Source: Escherichia coli (GTDB lineage: Bacteria > Pseudomonadota > Gammaproteobacteria > Enterobacterales > Enterobacteriaceae). Taken from it: a stretch of DNA of 64,000 nt. Below the pieces are notes generated by a model. That model saw only the letters and a program-made list of their open reading frames with translations, searched no databases and was not told where the DNA came from. The stretch's first letter is position 1, and every line of letters starts with the position of its first letter. A program made the position numbers and the translations under genes. Where the stretch lies: the NCBI RefSeq assembly GCF_001677475.2, contig NZ_CP015229.1. The stretch is one strand, 5' to 3'. Of this stretch, positions 5,867-49,188 are shown piece after piece.

Positions 5867-8800
5867 CTACCATTTCACCGTCATCGTCAAAAACCCTGTA
5901 GTCTGGGCAAAATCATCACTCCCTTTCTGCCACGCCATGCTACCACGCAGCGAAACTCGCTGACTGATATTGCCCGTTACTCCAACTTTTATTTCACCCC
6001 GTTGCTTCACCGCATCGTCACTGATAGTGCTGCCATCCTCTTCAATTTCCGTCGCATGGGGATCGTGATAATAATTCAGATCTAACGTTGGTGTGACATG
6101 AACAGCGGTACGCCATTCGCTGTGTAAACCCAGCCGCGTCTGAATATCATCACCCTGCGATTGTGACACGCGTGCATGGTTAGCGGCGGTAAAGTCATCC
6201 TGCAGCACGCCCTGATAAATCACCTGCGCCTGCGGTTCAATCACCACACCACGCTCCGGTAACCACTGATACCCCGCCTCCAGCGAGGCGATAATCCCCG
6301 ACGAGTGGTAATGATCTGTGCCATCGTCTTGTTCGGAAACATCATTGTTAAACCACGCGTATTGCAGCCAGCTATCCAGCCAGGCCCCCTGCTTCTGATT
6401 ACCGTGCTGAAACCAGCTTGAGGTCAGCCCAACGGCAAAACCGTGGTTCTGGTTATCGGCGCGAGTTCCAGTCATATTCGAGCGGCTGTCGCCCTGGTTA
6501 TCGCTGTAGCCACCTACAATCCCAAGCATCCACTCGCCATCATCGCCCCAGCGCCCCCTAAACAGGTCACCGCTAAGCTGCACCGTAGAAGTGTCTTCAT
6601 GCTGAGCCAGTTGCCTTGCCGCCGTGTAATGATAACGTCCGCCGATAACACGTAAATTCAGCGTCTGACCATCGCCACCAGCGTGATCGCGTCGCTCCAT
6701 CACAAACGCCTGATTTGCCGCCCGCAGGTTATTGAGATAACCGCCAACTTTGGCATTCAGCACCGGCTGGTAAGCGGGGATTGGATCGGGTGTTGGGTCA
6801 GGATCGGGTGTTGGGTCCGGGTCTGGATCAGGTGGCGATGGCGGCGTTACTTCTTGCGATCGCAGATACCAGTCGTTGTTATCTTCCACCAGCGTGTAGT
6901 CATACGCTCCCATGTTGACGTAGCCACTGCCTGCCAGACTGAACTGCGCATTGTTTTGAAACTGCGTGGGATCAGCTGCGAAATCAACCACTTTAATGCC
7001 TGTAGATGTCGGCTCACCAATCCCTGTAATGGGGTTAACCACAACCGTGGTATTGCCAGCAGTATTACCGTTCAACACCAACTGGTCGCTTGCTGAGTCA
7101 TCGCCGTTTAATTCGCTGTCGAGCAGTAACGTACCGCCGCCGGTGTAATCACCGTTTACCGTCAGCGTATCGCCAACGACGCCATTTTGCAGGCTAACCG
7201 CACCGGATGTATTGGTCAGATCACCATTAACCGTCACATCGGCAAGATAGGTCAGGTTGTCAGTTTCAAGGTTGGTATTAAGCTCACCTGTCAACGTCAC
7301 GCCATCGGTGGCATTCACCAGCGTCCCATCGCCGTTAAACAGTGAGGCATTAAGGGCGACAGAAGTATCCTGCCCGGTCAGGCGCAAAACCGTACCATCG
7401 CTGATGTCGATAGTGCCGCTGGAAGTAGCATCAATTGACTGAATATCCTGATCCGAGCCAGTAACGAACGTTGCCCCATCACCGACCCACAGTGACGAAG
7501 CATAAGGAAGAATATCCGCAACATCACCTTTCAGGGTGCCTTCTTCGACACGTACCGCCGACTGCGTTGTACCGCTGGCGGTCAGCTCCAGCGTGCCTGC
7601 ACCGGTTTTCGTCAGTGTGGTTCCCGCGTCCTGGTGCTGTCCACTGCTGTCGGCCATCAATGCGCCCCACTGCGTGTCGACCCCCGCATCAACTGCCACT
7701 TCACCGTCGGCGCGCATTTCAATATCACGCCCATGCTCAGTCGTTGTAGAGCGAGTATCGACATTGGCAGTAATCTCCATCACGCTTTCTTGTTGATTAT
7801 CGGTAAAGATAACCTGGCGGTTGTAATGGGTATCTCCAAGCTGCGAGTTGTCGCTCACCATCAGCGTACCGGAGGCGATTTGCGTTGTGCCGAGGTATTG
7901 ATTGTCATTTGCCAGGCTGACCTGCCCGTCACCCGCATCGATCACCACGTAGACGCCATCTTTCCCGTCGCCGCCGATATGCATATCGTTTCCGCCTGCA
8001 AGATCCACCACATCCTGACTGCCGATAACCGTACCGCCGTTGCCGCTGACTTCAAGGCCATCGTTGTATGATGTGCCGCTCTGCCAGGTGGAGAAATCAG
8101 AGAGATCGAGCACACCGCCGTTTAACACAATCGACTGCGGATCGTCCTGGAGAGCGGCAAGATCTGCCGCGTCGCCTTCCAGTGAAAGCACCGCACCATC
8201 ATCAACGACTATATCGCCGGTTAGCGCCATCGACTGCGCCCCCGCCAGCACATAGCTGCCGTTTTGCGCAATGGTGAGCTGACCAGCACCTTTGATGGTG
8301 CCAGCAAAACTGCCTTGATTAACAGTAACATTGCCACCAGCATCGATATTTAAAGTGCCATTCTGAAAGCCCGTCAATGAGTGCACAAAGGTTTGTTGGG
8401 TGGAGCCAACATTTAGCTCTGCCTGATTCTGGTACTTATCAATACTCCCTATCGTCAGACCGTAGCAGTCTTGCGGATCGTCCTGGCAATGCGTATCGCC
8501 GACATTCATCAGGGAGTTGCTGCGGCCCAGGGTAACTTCACCGTTTTCAATCTGCATCTCACCAGTAAAGTCATTGTTATCTGCATTAAGTACCAGATCG
8601 CCGGAACCTGTTTTGGTGATTAACCCGGTACCTGCAATAGAGTCAACAGCTCCGTCATTCTCTGTATTGCCGATAACCAGCGTTTTTCCGTCGGCAATAT
8701 CAAAGGTAACTTCACTTAAGCCGAGATACATAAAGCCACCCGCCGCAGTAGAAGGACCATCTCCATAGCCTGCTGCGCTATTGTTCTCATCCACTAACAC

Positions 8801-19648: not shown

Positions 19649-23713
<4,065 letters not shown>

Positions 23714-23721
23714 TCTTCACT

Positions 23722-23745
23722 GGCAGGACGTGAAAACCTCCTGCC
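23722..23745 (+). terminator. Hairpin after glpC
   Basis: ggcagga-cgtgaaaacc-tcctgcc immediately 3' of the glpC stop. Confidence 0.4.
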
Positions 23746-24085
23746 ATTCATATCCACGCTGAATATTTCAGAATAACTGCTCTCTATTTTTTTACTTAAC
23801 TTCACATTTCCATGTATTGACACTCGCTATCTAAAAGTAGCTTTATTATGTCCCTTCAGAAACTAATTGATATAAATAATAATATTCACCACCACATTAC
23901 CTAAAAGAATAATAATATACGATTATTAAAAATTAAACATATTCACCAGCATTATATGTTTAGAATTACTTTGATAGTTCCCGCAAAAAAAATGTTTATA
24001 AATATTTATTTGCGTATATAATCCCGTCTGTTTAATATATTAAAAACATAATATTATTCCATTCATCAATATAAAAGGAACTTAA

Positions 24086-24676
24086 GTGAAAGCAAAAATT
24101 CTCATTCCATCGTTATCTGTTCTCTTGATGGGTATATCGGCTTTAAGTTATGCGGACACTCCTGCCGGTAAAGTTCATTTCAATGGGCTAATTACTGCAT
24201 CAACTTGTGACTTAGAGCAAGGTACAGGCAAGGGACAGAATGACCAGACCGTAACGCTTCAGACAGTGGACGTTGCTGATTTTGGCGCTGCTGTAGGTAA
24301 TGAAGCAGCAAACTCTGCAACAGATTTTAATATTAATCTTACCGGTTGTACGACACAATTAGGTAGCATCAACCTTGAATTTAGCGGTAATACCACCGAT
24401 GCCACCGATAATACAGCCCTGGCAATTGACACCGGTGCAGATAAAGCAACAGGCGTAGGGATTCGTATTTATCGTGAAGGTGCTTCTTCACCGATTAATT
24501 TTGCTACTGATCGTACCGATGCAGAAAGCTCTGCGGTAACACTTTCATCCATTAGCCCAACCAATGGTGATGGCAAGCATAGCTTTAATTATAAAGCGGT
24601 TTATGTCAGAACAGCAGATACAATTACTGAAGGTCAGGGTAACGCGACTGCGGATTATCGTATCGCTTACTATTAA
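24086..24676 (+). CDS. Fimbrial major subunit (chaperone-usher pilin)
   Basis: 196 aa, signal peptide MKAKILIPSLSVLLMGISALSYA, Cys pair, C-terminal beta-strand ...YRIAYY; GTG start with AAGGAA RBS. Confidence 0.8.
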   Translation: MKAKILIPSLSVLLMGISALSYADTPAGKVHFNGLITASTCDLEQGTGKGQNDQTVTLQTVDVADFGAAVGNEAANSATDFNINLTGCTTQLGSINLEFSGNTTDATDNTALAIDTGADKATGVGIRIYREGASSPINFATDRTDAESSAVTLSSISPTNGDGKHSFNYKAVYVRTADTITEGQGNATADYRIAYY

Positions 24677-24733
24677 TGATATATTTCAAAGGGGTGAAAT
24701 TACTACACCCCTTAATTACTAAAGTAAAAATGC

Positions 24734-25438
24734 ATGAAAAAATACTCTTTATTACTGATTGTATTATTTGCCAACATTGCTTACGGGGGAGTGGTTATTC
24801 GGGGAACAAGAATTATTTACCCGTCCACGGCGCGGGAAATCCCTGTAGAAGTGACGAATCAAGATAAAGAGCGTTCATACCTTGTTCAGGCCTGGATGAG
24901 TGACTTTGCCAATGATGCAAATAAGAAAACGCCATTTGTACTCACTCCGCCGTTAGTTAAACTGGAAGCTCAGAAAAACACGCTTTTCCGCTTAATCTAT
25001 ACCGGTACGCAAAAATTGCCGGAGGATCGTGAATCCATTTTTTGGCTAAATGTAAAATCCATTCCTGGGATGTCAGAAGAGTCTTCACAGGTGCCGAATC
25101 AACTGCAATTTGCCGTTCAGAGCCAGCTCAAAGTTTTTTATCGTCCGCTGGGGCTTGCTGATGATGCCAATACCGCCTATAGCAAAATCGCTTTCCGGAT
25201 ACAAGGCAACAGGCTAATCGCCAAAAACCCAACACCTTACTTTGTCACCTTCCGCACTCTGGCAGTGAATGGTAAGCCCGTATCGTATAAAGGAAACGGC
25301 GTTGTGAAAATGATGCTCAATCCATTTGGCGAGCAAACATATACTCTGACCGCATCCTCTTCTGAAAACAATAGTGTTGAATGGTCAGCAATAAATGATT
25401 ACGGCGGTACGACAAATACCATAAAGACCCGGTTATAA
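24734..25438 (+). CDS. Periplasmic fimbrial chaperone (PapD-like)
   Basis: 234 aa, signal peptide, conserved chaperone motifs (GTRIIYP, LxQxW, FWLNVKSIP). Confidence 0.85.
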   Translation: MKKYSLLLIVLFANIAYGGVVIRGTRIIYPSTAREIPVEVTNQDKERSYLVQAWMSDFANDANKKTPFVLTPPLVKLEAQKNTLFRLIYTGTQKLPEDRESIFWLNVKSIPGMSEESSQVPNQLQFAVQSQLKVFYRPLGLADDANTAYSKIAFRIQGNRLIAKNPTPYFVTFRTLAVNGKPVSYKGNGVVKMMLNPFGEQTYTLTASSSENNSVEWSAINDYGGTTNTIKTRL

Positions 25439-25499
25439 GCGCAATAGATTGTTCAGGAAAACGACAGGAATTATCTCGTACAAGGAAAGTAATAATAAC

Positions 25500-27986
25500 A
25501 TGAACTCCTTACATCTATTTTGTTTGCATGTTGTTGTAACAATAGTGCCATTGACACTGTTACAAAACAGTTACGCCCGCGAGGTGTTTAATTACAAACT
25601 TTTAGAGTCAGGGGCTTCAGAAAGCGAACTGGAAGCCATTAAAAATTTTGACAAAAATGATGGCCTGGTGCCCGGTAAATATCGGGTCGATGTTTTTATG
25701 AATAATCAACGCATTACACGTAAAGATATTGATTTTGTCGTTGATGATAAAGCGAACAAACTCTTACCTGTGTTAAGCAAAAAAGAGTATATCGCTATGG
25801 GGGTTGCCGATAGCCCCTCCGCGTCATTTGCCACGCTGGCAAATGACGATATCGTGACGAATTTAGAAAATTATATTCCCTTTTCATCAGTGCGCTTTGA
25901 GCAAAGTTCGCTGCGTCTGTATCTGTCAGTTCCACAACTGGCGATGAACAATGCCGCAAACGGGTATATTGATCCGGTTTTATGGGATAATGGATTGCCT
26001 GCGTTGTTTACAAATTACTATTTTAGCGGCTCACATAATTGGCAAGATGGTCGTTCAGATAATAGTTCATATCTTAATCTGAATAATGGTATTAATCTTG
26101 GTCCCTGGCGTTTAAGAAATAACATTAATTATAACGATGGCACCTGGCAAAATATTGATACCTATATCTGGCGAAATATCCCTGCGTTAACCAGCAAACT
26201 CATTCTTGGCGATACCTGGACAGATTCAGCCGTTTTCGATAGTTTCCAGTTTCGCGGGGTAAAACTGGAAAGTAATGAAAATATGCTTCCTTACAGCATG
26301 AGAGGTTTTGCCCCCGTTATTCGCGGCGTTGCCAAAAGCAATGCGCAAGTGACGATTCGACAAAATAATTATATTATTTACCAAAGTACGGTATCCCCAG
26401 GTCCTTTCGAATTACATGATGTCTCTCCTGTTTCTTCTGGTGGGGATATGGAAGTCACGGTAAAAGAATCTGATGGTAGCGAACAAAAATATATTCAGGC
26501 ATCAGCTTCAATTCCTGTCATGCGCCGAGAAGGAGCCATGTCTTATAGTTTATCTGGCGGAGAATATCGCTCATCTGATAACTCCCATGATAAACCCGGC
26601 TTTGCTCAGGCGACGCTGATTTACGGTTTACCTGCAGGCATTACCCTCTATGGTGGCACAATTTTTGCCAGTGATTATCGTTCTGGCGCATTAGGTGCGG
26701 GTGTCGATTTACAACACTTTGGCTCGCTTTCAGCAGACATTACTCGTTCATATAGCCAGACGGTTGATGACAGTTCACAACAAGGACAATCTTACCGATT
26801 GCTTTACTCGAAAAATTTCTCCAGCACTGAAACGAATATCACGCTTGCTGGCTACCGTTATTCCACAGAGAATTTCTATACCTTTAGCGAAGCACAAAAT
26901 AATAAAGAGTATGATGAGGACGACGCGTTTTCATACCGTAACAACTATAACCGCCATCGTCGGTTACAACTTACCATTAATCAGGCGATCCCCTCGTTTG
27001 GTCAGTTCAATATTTCAGGCTATCAACAAGATTATTGGGGACTCGGGGGTAAAGAGCGCAGCCTCAGCGTAGGGTATAGTCATAGTTGGGAAAATGTGAG
27101 TTTTAGCCTAAGTTATTTACTGACACGAATGCCAGACAATAATAAGAACGATCAACAACTCTCACTTTCTGTCAGCGTTCCACTAGGAAAATGGTTACCT
27201 GGTGCGCATGTTAATTACAATAACACCAGCAGTAATAGCGGTCACACTTTAAACAGTGTGGCGCTTAACGGTACTGCGCTGGAAGATAATAATCTCAGTT
27301 ATAGTCTGCAACAAAGTCATGGCGATCAAGGTTATGGTGGCAATACGTCACTCAGTTATCGCTCCAGTAAAGGCGTAATAGGCGCAGGCTGGAACTATAG
27401 TCAGGATCAACGGCAATTAAATTACAATATGCAGGGCGCAATTGTTCTGCATCCGTATGGATTAACCCTTGCCCAGTCTTTAGGTGAATCATCGATTCTG
27501 GTGCGCGCCCCTGATGCCAGTGGGCTGGGCATTAACAGAGGAACGTCGGTTTATACCGACTGGCGAGGATACTCCATCATCCCTTACGCATCAGCATTTC
27601 AGCGCAACCGTATCGCCATCAATACGCAAACCTTGCCGTCAAATGTTGAAATACCGGAACCGGTACAAGAAGTTATTCCTACGGAAGGCGCATTAGTCGT
27701 AGCCAATTTTTCAACGCGATATGGTCAGAAATTACTTTTAACCTTAATGCATAAAGACAAATTTGTTCCCTTTGGAGCCGTAGTCACTGCTGAAGATGAG
27801 CAAATTTCAACCCTCGTTGGGCGAAACGGTGAAACGTATTTATCCGGCGTACAAGCTAATCAAAAATGGCAAGTCAAGTGGGGAAAATCGGCCACTGAAA
27901 GTTGCCAGGTTCATATATCACCAGAACTACTTCAGACACCGCAAAACATGACTAATCTTATTATTGCCACCGCAGCGTGTGATTAA
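25500..27986 (+). CDS. Outer-membrane fimbrial usher
   Basis: About 829 aa from ATG 25500 (ORF-track start 25449 is TTG); usher-sized beta-barrel protein with C-terminal Cys pair. Confidence 0.85.
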   Translation: MNSLHLFCLHVVVTIVPLTLLQNSYAREVFNYKLLESGASESELEAIKNFDKNDGLVPGKYRVDVFMNNQRITRKDIDFVVDDKANKLLPVLSKKEYIAMGVADSPSASFATLANDDIVTNLENYIPFSSVRFEQSSLRLYLSVPQLAMNNAANGYIDPVLWDNGLPALFTNYYFSGSHNWQDGRSDNSSYLNLNNGINLGPWRLRNNINYNDGTWQNIDTYIWRNIPALTSKLILGDTWTDSAVFDSFQFRGVKLESNENMLPYSMRGFAPVIRGVAKSNAQVTIRQNNYIIYQSTVSPGPFELHDVSPVSSGGDMEVTVKESDGSEQKYIQASASIPVMRREGAMSYSLSGGEYRSSDNSHDKPGFAQATLIYGLPAGITLYGGTIFASDYRSGALGAGVDLQHFGSLSADITRSYSQTVDDSSQQGQSYRLLYSKNFSSTETNITLAGYRYSTENFYTFSEAQNNKEYDEDDAFSYRNNYNRHRRLQLTINQAIPSFGQFNISGYQQDYWGLGGKERSLSVGYSHSWENVSFSLSYLLTRMPDNNKNDQQLSLSVSVPLGKWLPGAHVNYNNTSSNSGHTLNSVALNGTALEDNNLSYSLQQSHGDQGYGGNTSLSYRSSKGVIGAGWNYSQDQRQLNYNMQGAIVLHPYGLTLAQSLGESSILVRAPDASGLGINRGTSVYTDWRGYSIIPYASAFQRNRIAINTQTLPSNVEIPEPVQEVIPTEGALVVANFSTRYGQKLLLTLMHKDKFVPFGAVVTAEDEQISTLVGRNGETYLSGVQANQKWQVKWGKSATESCQVHISPELLQTPQNMTNLIIATAACD

Positions 27987-27990
27987 CATC

Positions 27991-29037
27991 ATGAAGATAA
28001 AAATCATCAGTACTTATAAAGTTACAAGTCGTGAAACGTTATTGCTGCTGGTTATTTTGATAGCAGCCTTTGTTCCTTCTCTTAGTTTCGCTAAAACATG
28101 TAGCTACGCCAGTGGTGGACCGGCATTAGTTTCATTTTCTGATATTTCGATCAATTCTGAATACAATAAAAATACAGCGCCAGGAACCATAATTTTTGAT
28201 CGAAGTTATCATTCCAGTCACTCAGGACAGATCACATGCTCAGACAATTATCCTGATTACAGTGAAGGGTTTGCCACTTCTCCTTCAACTTTAGTCGGCA
28301 GTGATATCTGTTTATTCAATGTACCTTTGACTAATGGAAAAAATTCTGGCATCGGCATTAAAATATTTTACGATTTAAAGAATAATAATACCACCCCAAA
28401 CAATTACTGCATGGAATACCCTAAACGTACCAGCACTGCAAATAAAAACAACTTTTCCGTTGAGGGTAATTTCCGCATACAATTAAAAGTCATCGGGGAA
28501 TTACAGAGTGGTGAAATTGATTTATCTCGTTTTAGTAATGCTGGCATTTGGTGGAATAATATTGAGGCATTTTCTCTCGAATTTAGCAACACCATTATTA
28601 ATCTTCACTCATTGAGCTGCGACCTGAACACGCCTGATGTTCCAGTTTCATTATCACCCGCCGCAGGAATTAATTCCGACATCACCTTCAAAGGGATTAA
28701 CTCCACTTCGGCGCTGGTAGATTTTAATATCGGACTAACGTGTGATCCGGGAACCAATGTCGCCATACGTTTTGAAGGCGATACGGTAAGTGGAAGTAAT
28801 AATTCAATCCTGAAGCTAACTCAACAGAATAATTCTGCCTCTGGGGTTGGCGTACAGATCTTAGATAAGAATAAAAATATTATCCCCCTTAATCAACCTG
28901 ATTACGTTTTACAGTTAAGTAATATTCAGCAATCAGCCACGTCGTTGAATTTTAGTGCGCGATATATTCAGACAGAAAGTAATGTAACGCCAGGAAAAGC
29001 GGATGCGGATGCGACATTTTATCTTTCGTTTCCGTAA
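27991..29037 (+). CDS. Fimbrial tip adhesin / minor subunit (two-domain)
   Basis: About 349 aa from ATG 27991; signal peptide, N-terminal lectin-like half and C-terminal pilin-like half; last gene of the operon. Confidence 0.65.
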   Translation: MKIKIISTYKVTSRETLLLLVILIAAFVPSLSFAKTCSYASGGPALVSFSDISINSEYNKNTAPGTIIFDRSYHSSHSGQITCSDNYPDYSEGFATSPSTLVGSDICLFNVPLTNGKNSGIGIKIFYDLKNNNTTPNNYCMEYPKRTSTANKNNFSVEGNFRIQLKVIGELQSGEIDLSRFSNAGIWWNNIEAFSLEFSNTIINLHSLSCDLNTPDVPVSLSPAAGINSDITFKGINSTSALVDFNIGLTCDPGTNVAIRFEGDTVSGSNNSILKLTQQNNSASGVGVQILDKNKNIIPLNQPDYVLQLSNIQQSATSLNFSARYIQTESNVTPGKADADATFYLSFP

Positions 29038-29060
29038 TGAACAGCAATAAACCCGCGAAC

Positions 29061-41666: not shown

Positions 41667-42625
41667 AACAACCGCTCCAGTGCATCAACTTCCACGACAG
41701 GCAGCGTGCTACCCGGCCAGCGACGTACCTGCTGCGCCTGCATCAGATCCAGCGTGTCCAGCCCTGGAATGGTGTCCGGCGTTAACCAGGCGGCAATCCG
41801 CGCCAGTTGCGTTAAGCCTAAGCTCGATTCAATGGAAGAACTGATCACCGCCGTCAGCCCCACCGCGTGCGCCGCCTGTACCTGCTCGCGTACTTTTTCC
41901 AGACTGCCCGTGAGCGTGGGTTTGATAACTACCGCGCGCACGCCCTCTTCAGCCACAAAGGCAAAATCCGGCTCGCGCAGGCTTTCATCCCAGGCAATGG
42001 CAATGCCGGTTTCACGGGCAAACGCTCGCGAATCATCGCGGGTTTTGCACGGCTCTTCGAGAAACGCGATGCGGTCGCGATAATCCGGGTTAACGTATTT
42101 GGCAAACTGCTGACCTTTCAGCGGTGTCCAGGCGCGATTTGCGTCAAGACGCAAATGCAGATCCGGAATTGCCTCCAGCAACAGATTCACCACCATGCCG
42201 TCGCGCACCGCTTCGTACAATCCCACTTTGACCTTCGCCACTTTCTCGCCAGGCATATCGGCAAGTTTGAGGATCAGATCGTCCGGATCGCCATTACACA
42301 GTGGTGCCGTACGGTAATTGGCCGCCTGCGGGAGCGTATCTGCCAGCTCCGCCAATGCACAGCTTACGCCAAAGGCGACGGAAGGCAGCTGCGGTAATTC
42401 GCAATCGCCTGCCAGCCAGTTATTTACCCAGGCAAGCAGCACACTTTGCGCCTCTTCCCAGGTTTCCTGACTGAAGCCCGGCAGTGGGGAGATCTCCCCC
42501 CACCCTTCGCGCTCGCCTTCACGCAGGCAAACATACAGCCCGTCGCGGGTTTTTAACCGCCTGTCGCGCAGAACCACCCCCGCGTCCATGGGGATCTGCC
42601 AGCGGTATACCTGCGCGCTACGCAT
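41663..42625 (-). CDS. menC: o-Succinylbenzoate synthase
   Basis: 320-aa enolase-superfamily ORF, overlapping menE. Confidence 0.93.
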
Positions 42626-48270: not shown

Positions 48271-49188
48271 ATGGAATTAATTTTTTTAGGTACTTCAGCC
48301 GGTGTGCCAACCCGTACGCGCAATGTCACGGCAATATTGCTTAACCTGCAACATCCGACCCAGAGCGGACTTTGGTTGTTTGACTGCGGTGAAGGCACCC
48401 AGCATCAGCTACTGCATACCGCCTTTAACCCTGGAAAACTGGATAAGATTTTTATCAGCCACCTTCATGGCGATCATCTCTTTGGTTTACCCGGCTTGCT
48501 GTGCAGTCGTTCTATGTCAGGCATTATCCAACCCTTAACGATTTATGGTCCGCAAGGTATCCGTGAATTTGTGGAGACTGCGCTGCGGATTAGCGGCTCA
48601 TGGACCGATTATCCGCTGGAAATTGTCGAAATTGGCGCTGGCGAAATTCTCGATGATGGCCTGCGCAAAGTAACCGCTTATCCGCTGGAACACCCACTGG
48701 AATGTTATGGCTATCGTATTGAAGAACATGATAAACCGGGTGCATTAAATGCCCAGGCATTAAAAGCTGCTGGCGTGCCGCCTGGCCCACTGTTTCAGGC
48801 ATTAAAAGCGGGCAAAACAATCACGCTGGAAGATGGAAGGCAGATTAACGGCGCAGATTACTTAGCTGCTCCAGTGCCAGGTAAAGCGCTCGCTATTTTC
48901 GGCGATACCGGCCCCTGCGATGCCGCACTTGACCTGGCTAAAGGTGTCGATGTCATGGTGCACGAAGCGACGCTGGATATAACCATGGAAGCCAAAGCCA
49001 ATAGTCGCGGCCATAGCTCTACACGCCAGGCTGCGACACTGGCCCGTGAGGCTGGAGTCGGTAAGCTAATCATTACCCACGTCAGCTCGCGCTATGATGA
49101 CAAAGGTTGTCAGCACCTGTTACGTGAATGTCGGTCAATTTTCCCGGCGACTGAACTGGCGAATGATTTCACCGTGTTTAACGTTTAA
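48271..49188 (+). CDS. rbn: Ribonuclease BN / RNase Z (metallo-beta-lactamase fold)
   Basis: Start [18 protein letters not shown]; HLHGDH zinc-binding motif. Confidence 0.93.

Follow-up and report, generated by a model that had tools for sequence, protein, structure and literature searches.

Silencing by H-NS of acquired and cryptic chaperone-usher operons is well established in E. coli. The closest described counterparts of the leader studied here are those of cryptic, H-NS-silenced gamma-type operons of the Fim, Lpf, Sti and Bcf kind in E. coli and Salmonella, and the resemblance extends to the order of the genes (pilin, chaperone, usher, tip subunit), to the Fim/Lpf-like families of their products, to the combination of a low G+C operon with a very AT-rich upstream spacer, and to the location in an islet that is specific to a strain or lineage and is flanked by conserved core genes. 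The present locus differs from those operons in that none of its proteins reaches the cut-off of an NCBIfam equivalog, no regulator or recombinase gene is linked to it, and an involvement of H-NS is suggested by base composition only. Pap-type promoters, with two sets of GATC/Lrp sites about 102 bp apart, are similar to it in that two short repeated sites lie tens of bp from each other upstream of the pilin promoter; here, however, GATC is absent, there are no papI- or papB-like genes and the repeat pair is not conserved. Since two GATC-containing Lrp site sets do not occur in 23714-24085, a Pap-like Dam/Lrp phase-variation switch was rejected. The invertible fimS switch also has short repeats within the promoter region of a fimbrial operon, but these are inverted, flank about 300 bp and go with adjacent recombinase genes, whereas the repeats described here are direct, 57 bp apart and without an adjacent recombinase. 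With direct repeats, and no flanking inverted repeats accompanied by a recombinase gene, an invertible switch of the fimS type was discarded as well.

The repeats in question are two near-identical 13-mers, for which an earlier note on this DNA had offered two explanations, paired sites for a regulator encoded elsewhere or an AT-rich coincidence. The former found no support in our analysis, and we believe that the latter is very probably correct, the 13-mers being a chance resemblance in a leader that is rich in A+T, evolves fast and belongs to a chaperone-usher operon acquired horizontally. This reading is based on the frequency with which shuffled spacers yield as good a pair, on the background of ten equally good pairs in the window (the whole 64-kb stretch of DNA that was analysed), and on the fact that the orthologous leader has lost the pair.

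A fimbrial islet between glpC and pncC

The genes glpA, glpB and glpC end at position 23713 of the window, glpC being 93% identical to its E. coli counterpart, and are followed by a four-gene operon:

24086..24676, + strand: major fimbrial subunit (pilin) gene, GTG start, 196 aa (Pfam PF00419, E = 2.6e-18)
24734..25438, + strand: periplasmic fimbrial chaperone gene (PapD_N and PapD_C, PF00345 and PF02753)
25449..27986, + strand: outer-membrane usher gene, ORF limits (PapC_N, Usher and PapC_C; PF13954, PF00577 and PF13953)
27964..29037, + strand: two-domain fimbrial subunit gene, putative tip adhesin, 357 aa (PF00419 on residues 239-356 only)

Gene callers placed the usher start at ~25500, which gives a protein of 828 aa, and the C-terminal part of the 27964-29037 product resembles the FimF and FimA pilin domains. 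By their Pfam domains, these genes have the make-up of a chaperone-usher operon, in which the genes of a pilin, a chaperone (PapD-like), an usher (PapC-like) and one further subunit lie next to each other, and no regulator or recombinase gene was detected by Pfam within or adjoining the four. The next gene, pncC/yfaY, is on the minus strand. In NCBIfam, the four proteins were nearest to the Lpf, Fim, Sti and Bcf families and none reached a curated cut-off; specifically, all matches of the pilin to the Lpf, Fim and Stk subunit models were below the cut-offs. The operon is left unnamed because no protein reaches the cut-off of any NCBIfam equivalog and, as judged from its predicted proteins, it represents a new, though ordinary, chaperone-usher operon of the Fim/Lpf-like kind.

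The operon lies in a low G+C islet of 5.3 kb (23714-29040), its own G+C content being 36-46% versus ~55% in the flanks, and it occupies the site that in E. coli holds rpnE, a small hypothetical gene and rhmA/T/D/R. It was absent from the 5,426 complete RefSeq E. coli genomes searched with megablast and blastn, and an identical pilin was found in genomes labelled as E. coli, E. ruysiae, Escherichia sp. Marseille-Q3837 and other unclassified Escherichia, which points to a source in the cryptic-clade group of Escherichia or closely related to E. coli. Because glpC (22448-23713) is 93% identical to that of E. coli, versus 96-98% in both long flanks (1-22000 and 29114-53900), the comparison suggests that a recombination tract may have introduced the islet along with part of glpABC. 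A duplication of the target site or island boundary was looked for and rejected, as E. coli homology stops at the glpC stop codon and the right boundary has no matching repeat.

A second Escherichia lineage (contigs L011-L014, L025 and L026) carries the operon at the same site between glpC and pncC with a pilin 88% identical to that of the window, and the full order glpTQ-glpABC-operon-pncC-yfaZ-nudI could be followed in L025. In that contig (11902-12953), the fourth gene was called as only 208 aa after a gap of ~420 bp, versus 348 aa in L026, and this putative adhesin gene may be disrupted in the L025 strain. Homologues were also found in C. braakii (pilin 80% identical) and C. portucalensis (79%), where they are in different genomic contexts. 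In C. portucalensis CP186530.1 (L018, 1-3600), the four-gene fimbrial operon is directly 3' of genes for a lipocalin (PF08212), a beta-lactamase (PF00144) and a LysR-type regulator (PF00126 with PF03466), a trio that looks like blc-ampC-ampR, and the distance between the regulator and pilin genes is just 171 bp. Searching 5.8 billion protein sequences yielded five pilin clusters (99, 88, 87, 80 and 79% identity, the third represented by a partial protein) and no further intermediate relatives, and no relatives were found by scanning contigs of species-representative genomes with a profile of the pilin alignment. Since the protein search gave only these five clusters, it is unlikely that further intermediate orthologues exist.

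The leader and its repeated 13-mers

The spacer between glpC and the pilin gene (23714-24085) is 372 bp long with 27% G+C, and contains the following features:

23721..23746, + strand: hairpin directly after the glpC stop codon (-15.9 kcal/mol, z-score -4.3)
23882..23894, + strand: copy 1 of the 13-mer, ATATTCACCACCA, centred at about -141 from the predicted transcription start
23939..23951, + strand: copy 2 of the 13-mer, ATATTCACCAGCA, centred at about -84 from the predicted transcription start
23984..23992, + strand: A-tract, A8 then T, just 5' of the predicted -35 and conserved between two lineages
23995..24022, + strand: predicted sigma-70 promoter, with -35 TTTATA (23995-24000), a 16-nt spacer and -10 TATAAT (24017-24022)

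Reading both copies from the window sequence confirmed that the 13-mers, their coordinates and their 57-bp separation had been given exactly in the earlier note, which was also right in placing them upstream of a pilin gene, in a leader or promoter region rich in A+T, as seen from the G+C content of the spacer and the Pfam Fimbrial assignment of the gene. The two copies form a direct repeat, with 57 bp from start to start and 12 of 13 positions identical. They have in common an exact core of 10 nt, ATATTCACCA, and in a repeat search the similarity extended over 21 nt (81% identity). With four C in ten bases, versus 18% C across the spacer, this core is not a low-complexity AT word. A distance of 57 bp corresponds to ~5.4 helical turns, so that the two sites are out of phase and on opposite faces of the DNA. 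The possibility that the pair is the remainder of a longer 57-bp tandem duplication was dismissed, as the segments outside the 21-nt core match at ~39% of positions (hand count), close to the ~32% that base composition predicts. Two further symmetries were observed in the spacer. One is a perfect 9-bp inverted repeat (TAAACATAT at 23934-23942 and ATATGTTTA at 23954-23962, with an 11-nt spacer), the left arm and spacer of which are overlapped by copy 2, and which according to the leader alignment is not kept in the orthologue; the other is a near-palindrome, CTGAATATTTCAG, at 23759-23771, upstream of the 13-mers in a region that differs in the cross-lineage alignment. Both are probably AT-rich coincidences.

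The predicted promoter was the best site of the promoter scan (10 of 12 matches) and lies ~64 bp upstream of the pilin GTG. No other stretch of the spacer is as well conserved between the two Escherichia lineages as its -10 block, ATTTG[C/T]GTATATAAT, which ends at 24022, and in the alignment the orthologue has TTTCCA as the counterpart of the -35 at the same 16-nt spacing. We infer from these features that the promoter of the fimbrial operon is at 23995-24022, with a predicted transcription start near 24029. Downstream of it, the ribosome-binding site AAAAGGAA and the start codon are kept, the latter as GTG in the window and as ATG at the same position in the orthologue. The hairpin next to glpC is present at the same place in the L025 orthologue, where a U-run follows it; the hairpin of the window has no T-run, and there it was not called by a simple terminator scan. 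The glpABC transcript probably ends there. Those parts of the spacer that are conserved are this hairpin, the A-tract and the -10 region. The only ORF contained within it encodes 21 aa (23956-24021), and two longer ORFs on the minus strand just run in from the coding region of glpC. No RNA family was matched in the spacer by Rfam at E <= 1, and reading of the sequence confirmed that 23714-24085 has no GATC.

The A-tract may act like an UP element. It varies among strains (A7T, A8T, A7TT and A8TT) and is located 5' of the -35, that is, outside the interval between -35 and -10; its length variants would alter the distance from the promoter to any upstream site. Farther upstream, a T7/T6 tract at 23786-23792 is also strain-variable. 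The variants of both tracts track linked SNPs and for this reason look inherited, unlike those expected of fast slipped-strand switching.

Taken in order, these elements suggest the following arrangement for the leader. Transcription of glpABC would end at the hairpin just 3' of glpC, and the fimbrial operon would be driven from its own sigma-70 promoter with an A-tract upstream of the -35. The 27% G+C leader would probably be coated and silenced by H-NS, as judged only from its base composition.

Chance expectation and conservation of the pair

We compared the spacer with itself without gaps, each match being given a weight of -log2 of base frequency in order not to undervalue the C-rich core. 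The 57-bp pair was the top-scoring ungapped direct repeat (17.6 bits), and its score was reached or exceeded in 69 of 500 dinucleotide-preserving shuffles of the spacer (14%). When mismatches and gaps were allowed, 25 of 100 dinucleotide shuffles (25%) equalled or beat the observed pair. The longest exact direct repeat of the spacer is another one, the AT-only 11-mer AATAATAATAT at 23875 and 23908. In the whole window (64 kb), we counted 19 exact direct repeats of at least 10 nt and, scattered throughout, 10 pairs of 13-mers with at least 12/13 identity, in both cases at distances within 100 bp. Therefore, both by the spacer shuffles and by the window-wide count of pairs, the similarity of the two copies does not rise above what local base composition yields by chance. 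A pattern search of the window for the 13-mer gave three matches versus 0.2 expected, but this enrichment is circular, the pattern having been derived from these very sites, and the sole further match (with no more than one mismatch), at 42183, is in coding sequence inside an ORF of 320 aa. The longest close-range exact direct repeats of the window, all stronger than the 13-mer pair, are a 17-mer with 18-bp spacing, a 13-mer with 69-bp spacing and a 14-mer with 42-bp spacing, and the three are located at 6783-6817, 48604-48700 and 48753-48810. A literature search on the 10-mer ATATTCACCA and on E. ruysiae fimbriae retrieved nothing relevant.

Conservation was examined within and between lineages. 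The same-lineage set comprised 10 contigs with an identical pilin and four with close variants, and their glpC-pilin spacers are ~99% identical, which is too high to reveal constraint. Among the ~14 columns that vary within this lineage, two are inside copy 1, namely A23888C (in L010) and A23894G (in L006 and L022-L024). The comparison between lineages rests on one diverged orthologous lineage (two Escherichia lineages in all) and gave 53% identity for the spacer versus 58-59% at third codon positions in the genes of pilin and chaperone, values close enough for the spacer to look near-neutral. With a spacer mean of 6.9 bases kept per 13-column window, copy 1 kept 4 of 13 in the orthologue, which places it in the lowest 8% of such windows. 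Copy 2 (in the orthologue, ATATTCATAAACA) kept 10 of 13, a value reached or exceeded by ~12% of the 13-column windows of the spacer, and lies within a moderately conserved block extending to ~23962, in which the neighbouring windows starting at 23948 and 23950 keep at least 11 of 13. Thus, the two sites are not both conserved above the neutral background. Moreover, neither a second copy nor the TTCACCA word is present in the orthologous leader or in the leaders of the two Citrobacter homologues.

Alternative readings and significance

Other readings of the 13-mers have to be weighed against a chance resemblance. Were they paired operators through which a trans-encoded regulator activates or represses the operon in this lineage only, from about -84 and -141, several observations would fit: the 12/13 identity and relatively C-rich core, the position of both copies upstream of the best predicted promoter at distances proper to upstream activator or repressor sites, the location of copy 2 in a comparatively well conserved block, and the lack of a local regulator in the four-gene operon, which implies that any specific control must come from elsewhere. 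A restriction to this lineage is also compatible with a comparison that covers just one diverged orthologous lineage. However, the pair is at the level of chance in the shuffles and in the window count, copy 1 is poorly kept in the orthologue and polymorphic within its own lineage, and none of the homologous leaders, whether of the orthologue or of Citrobacter, has a pair. A spacing of ~5.4 turns, with sites on opposite faces, disfavors cooperative binding, and a spacer without GATC does not have the layout of a Pap-type Dam/Lrp switch. We consequently regard paired operators as improbable. We know of no regulator with a convincing match, the resemblances of the 13-mers to the RcsAB box, the Tor box and the PhoP, OmpR, CpxR, Lrp, NarL, Fur and IHF consensus sequences being partial. 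That they are recently evolved, lineage-specific sites for an unlinked regulator is quite improbable too; if true, such sites would tie the islet into a host circuit and be an instance of new operators arising after horizontal acquisition.

It could also be that function is confined to copy 2 and its surroundings (~23939-23962, ATATTCAnnAnCATTATnTGTT), where a single regulator might bind or a nucleoid protein might nucleate, with copy 1 as a fortuitous look-alike. The bases kept in copy 2 and in the windows next to it, in a spacer of near-neutral 53% identity, speak for this idea, but conservation of that degree is unexceptional among the windows of the spacer, the overlapping 9-bp inverted repeat is not kept in the orthologue and the comparison covers two lineages only, so that we consider it unlikely. 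Finally, the TTCACC contained in each copy might be taken for the -35-like hexamer of additional weak upstream promoters, and the promoter scan indeed lists TTCACC (23885-23890) with a 17-nt spacer and AATAAT (23908-23913) as a 9/12 match. Yet promoter-like sites are not enriched in the spacer (4 versus 2.7 +/- 1.2 in shuffles), on reading the sequence copy 2 has no comparable -10 hexamer 16-18 nt downstream, and copy 1 is not conserved, all of which makes such promoters extremely unlikely. Hence, under the reading that we prefer, a chance resemblance, the 13-mer pair is present in the sequence yet is not real as a functional element, and no role can be demonstrated for it; if anything near the repeat is functional, it would be the block around copy 2 alone.

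The 13-mer pair therefore matters little in itself, since it is one of about ten equal short repeat pairs that arise by chance in a 64-kb window, and a reader scanning the full window would meet about ten of them. What is gained is a map of the region, with a fimbrial islet specific to cryptic-clade Escherichia between glpC and pncC, in which the conserved promoter core and the strain-variable A-tract are the places to examine for regulation of the fimbria.
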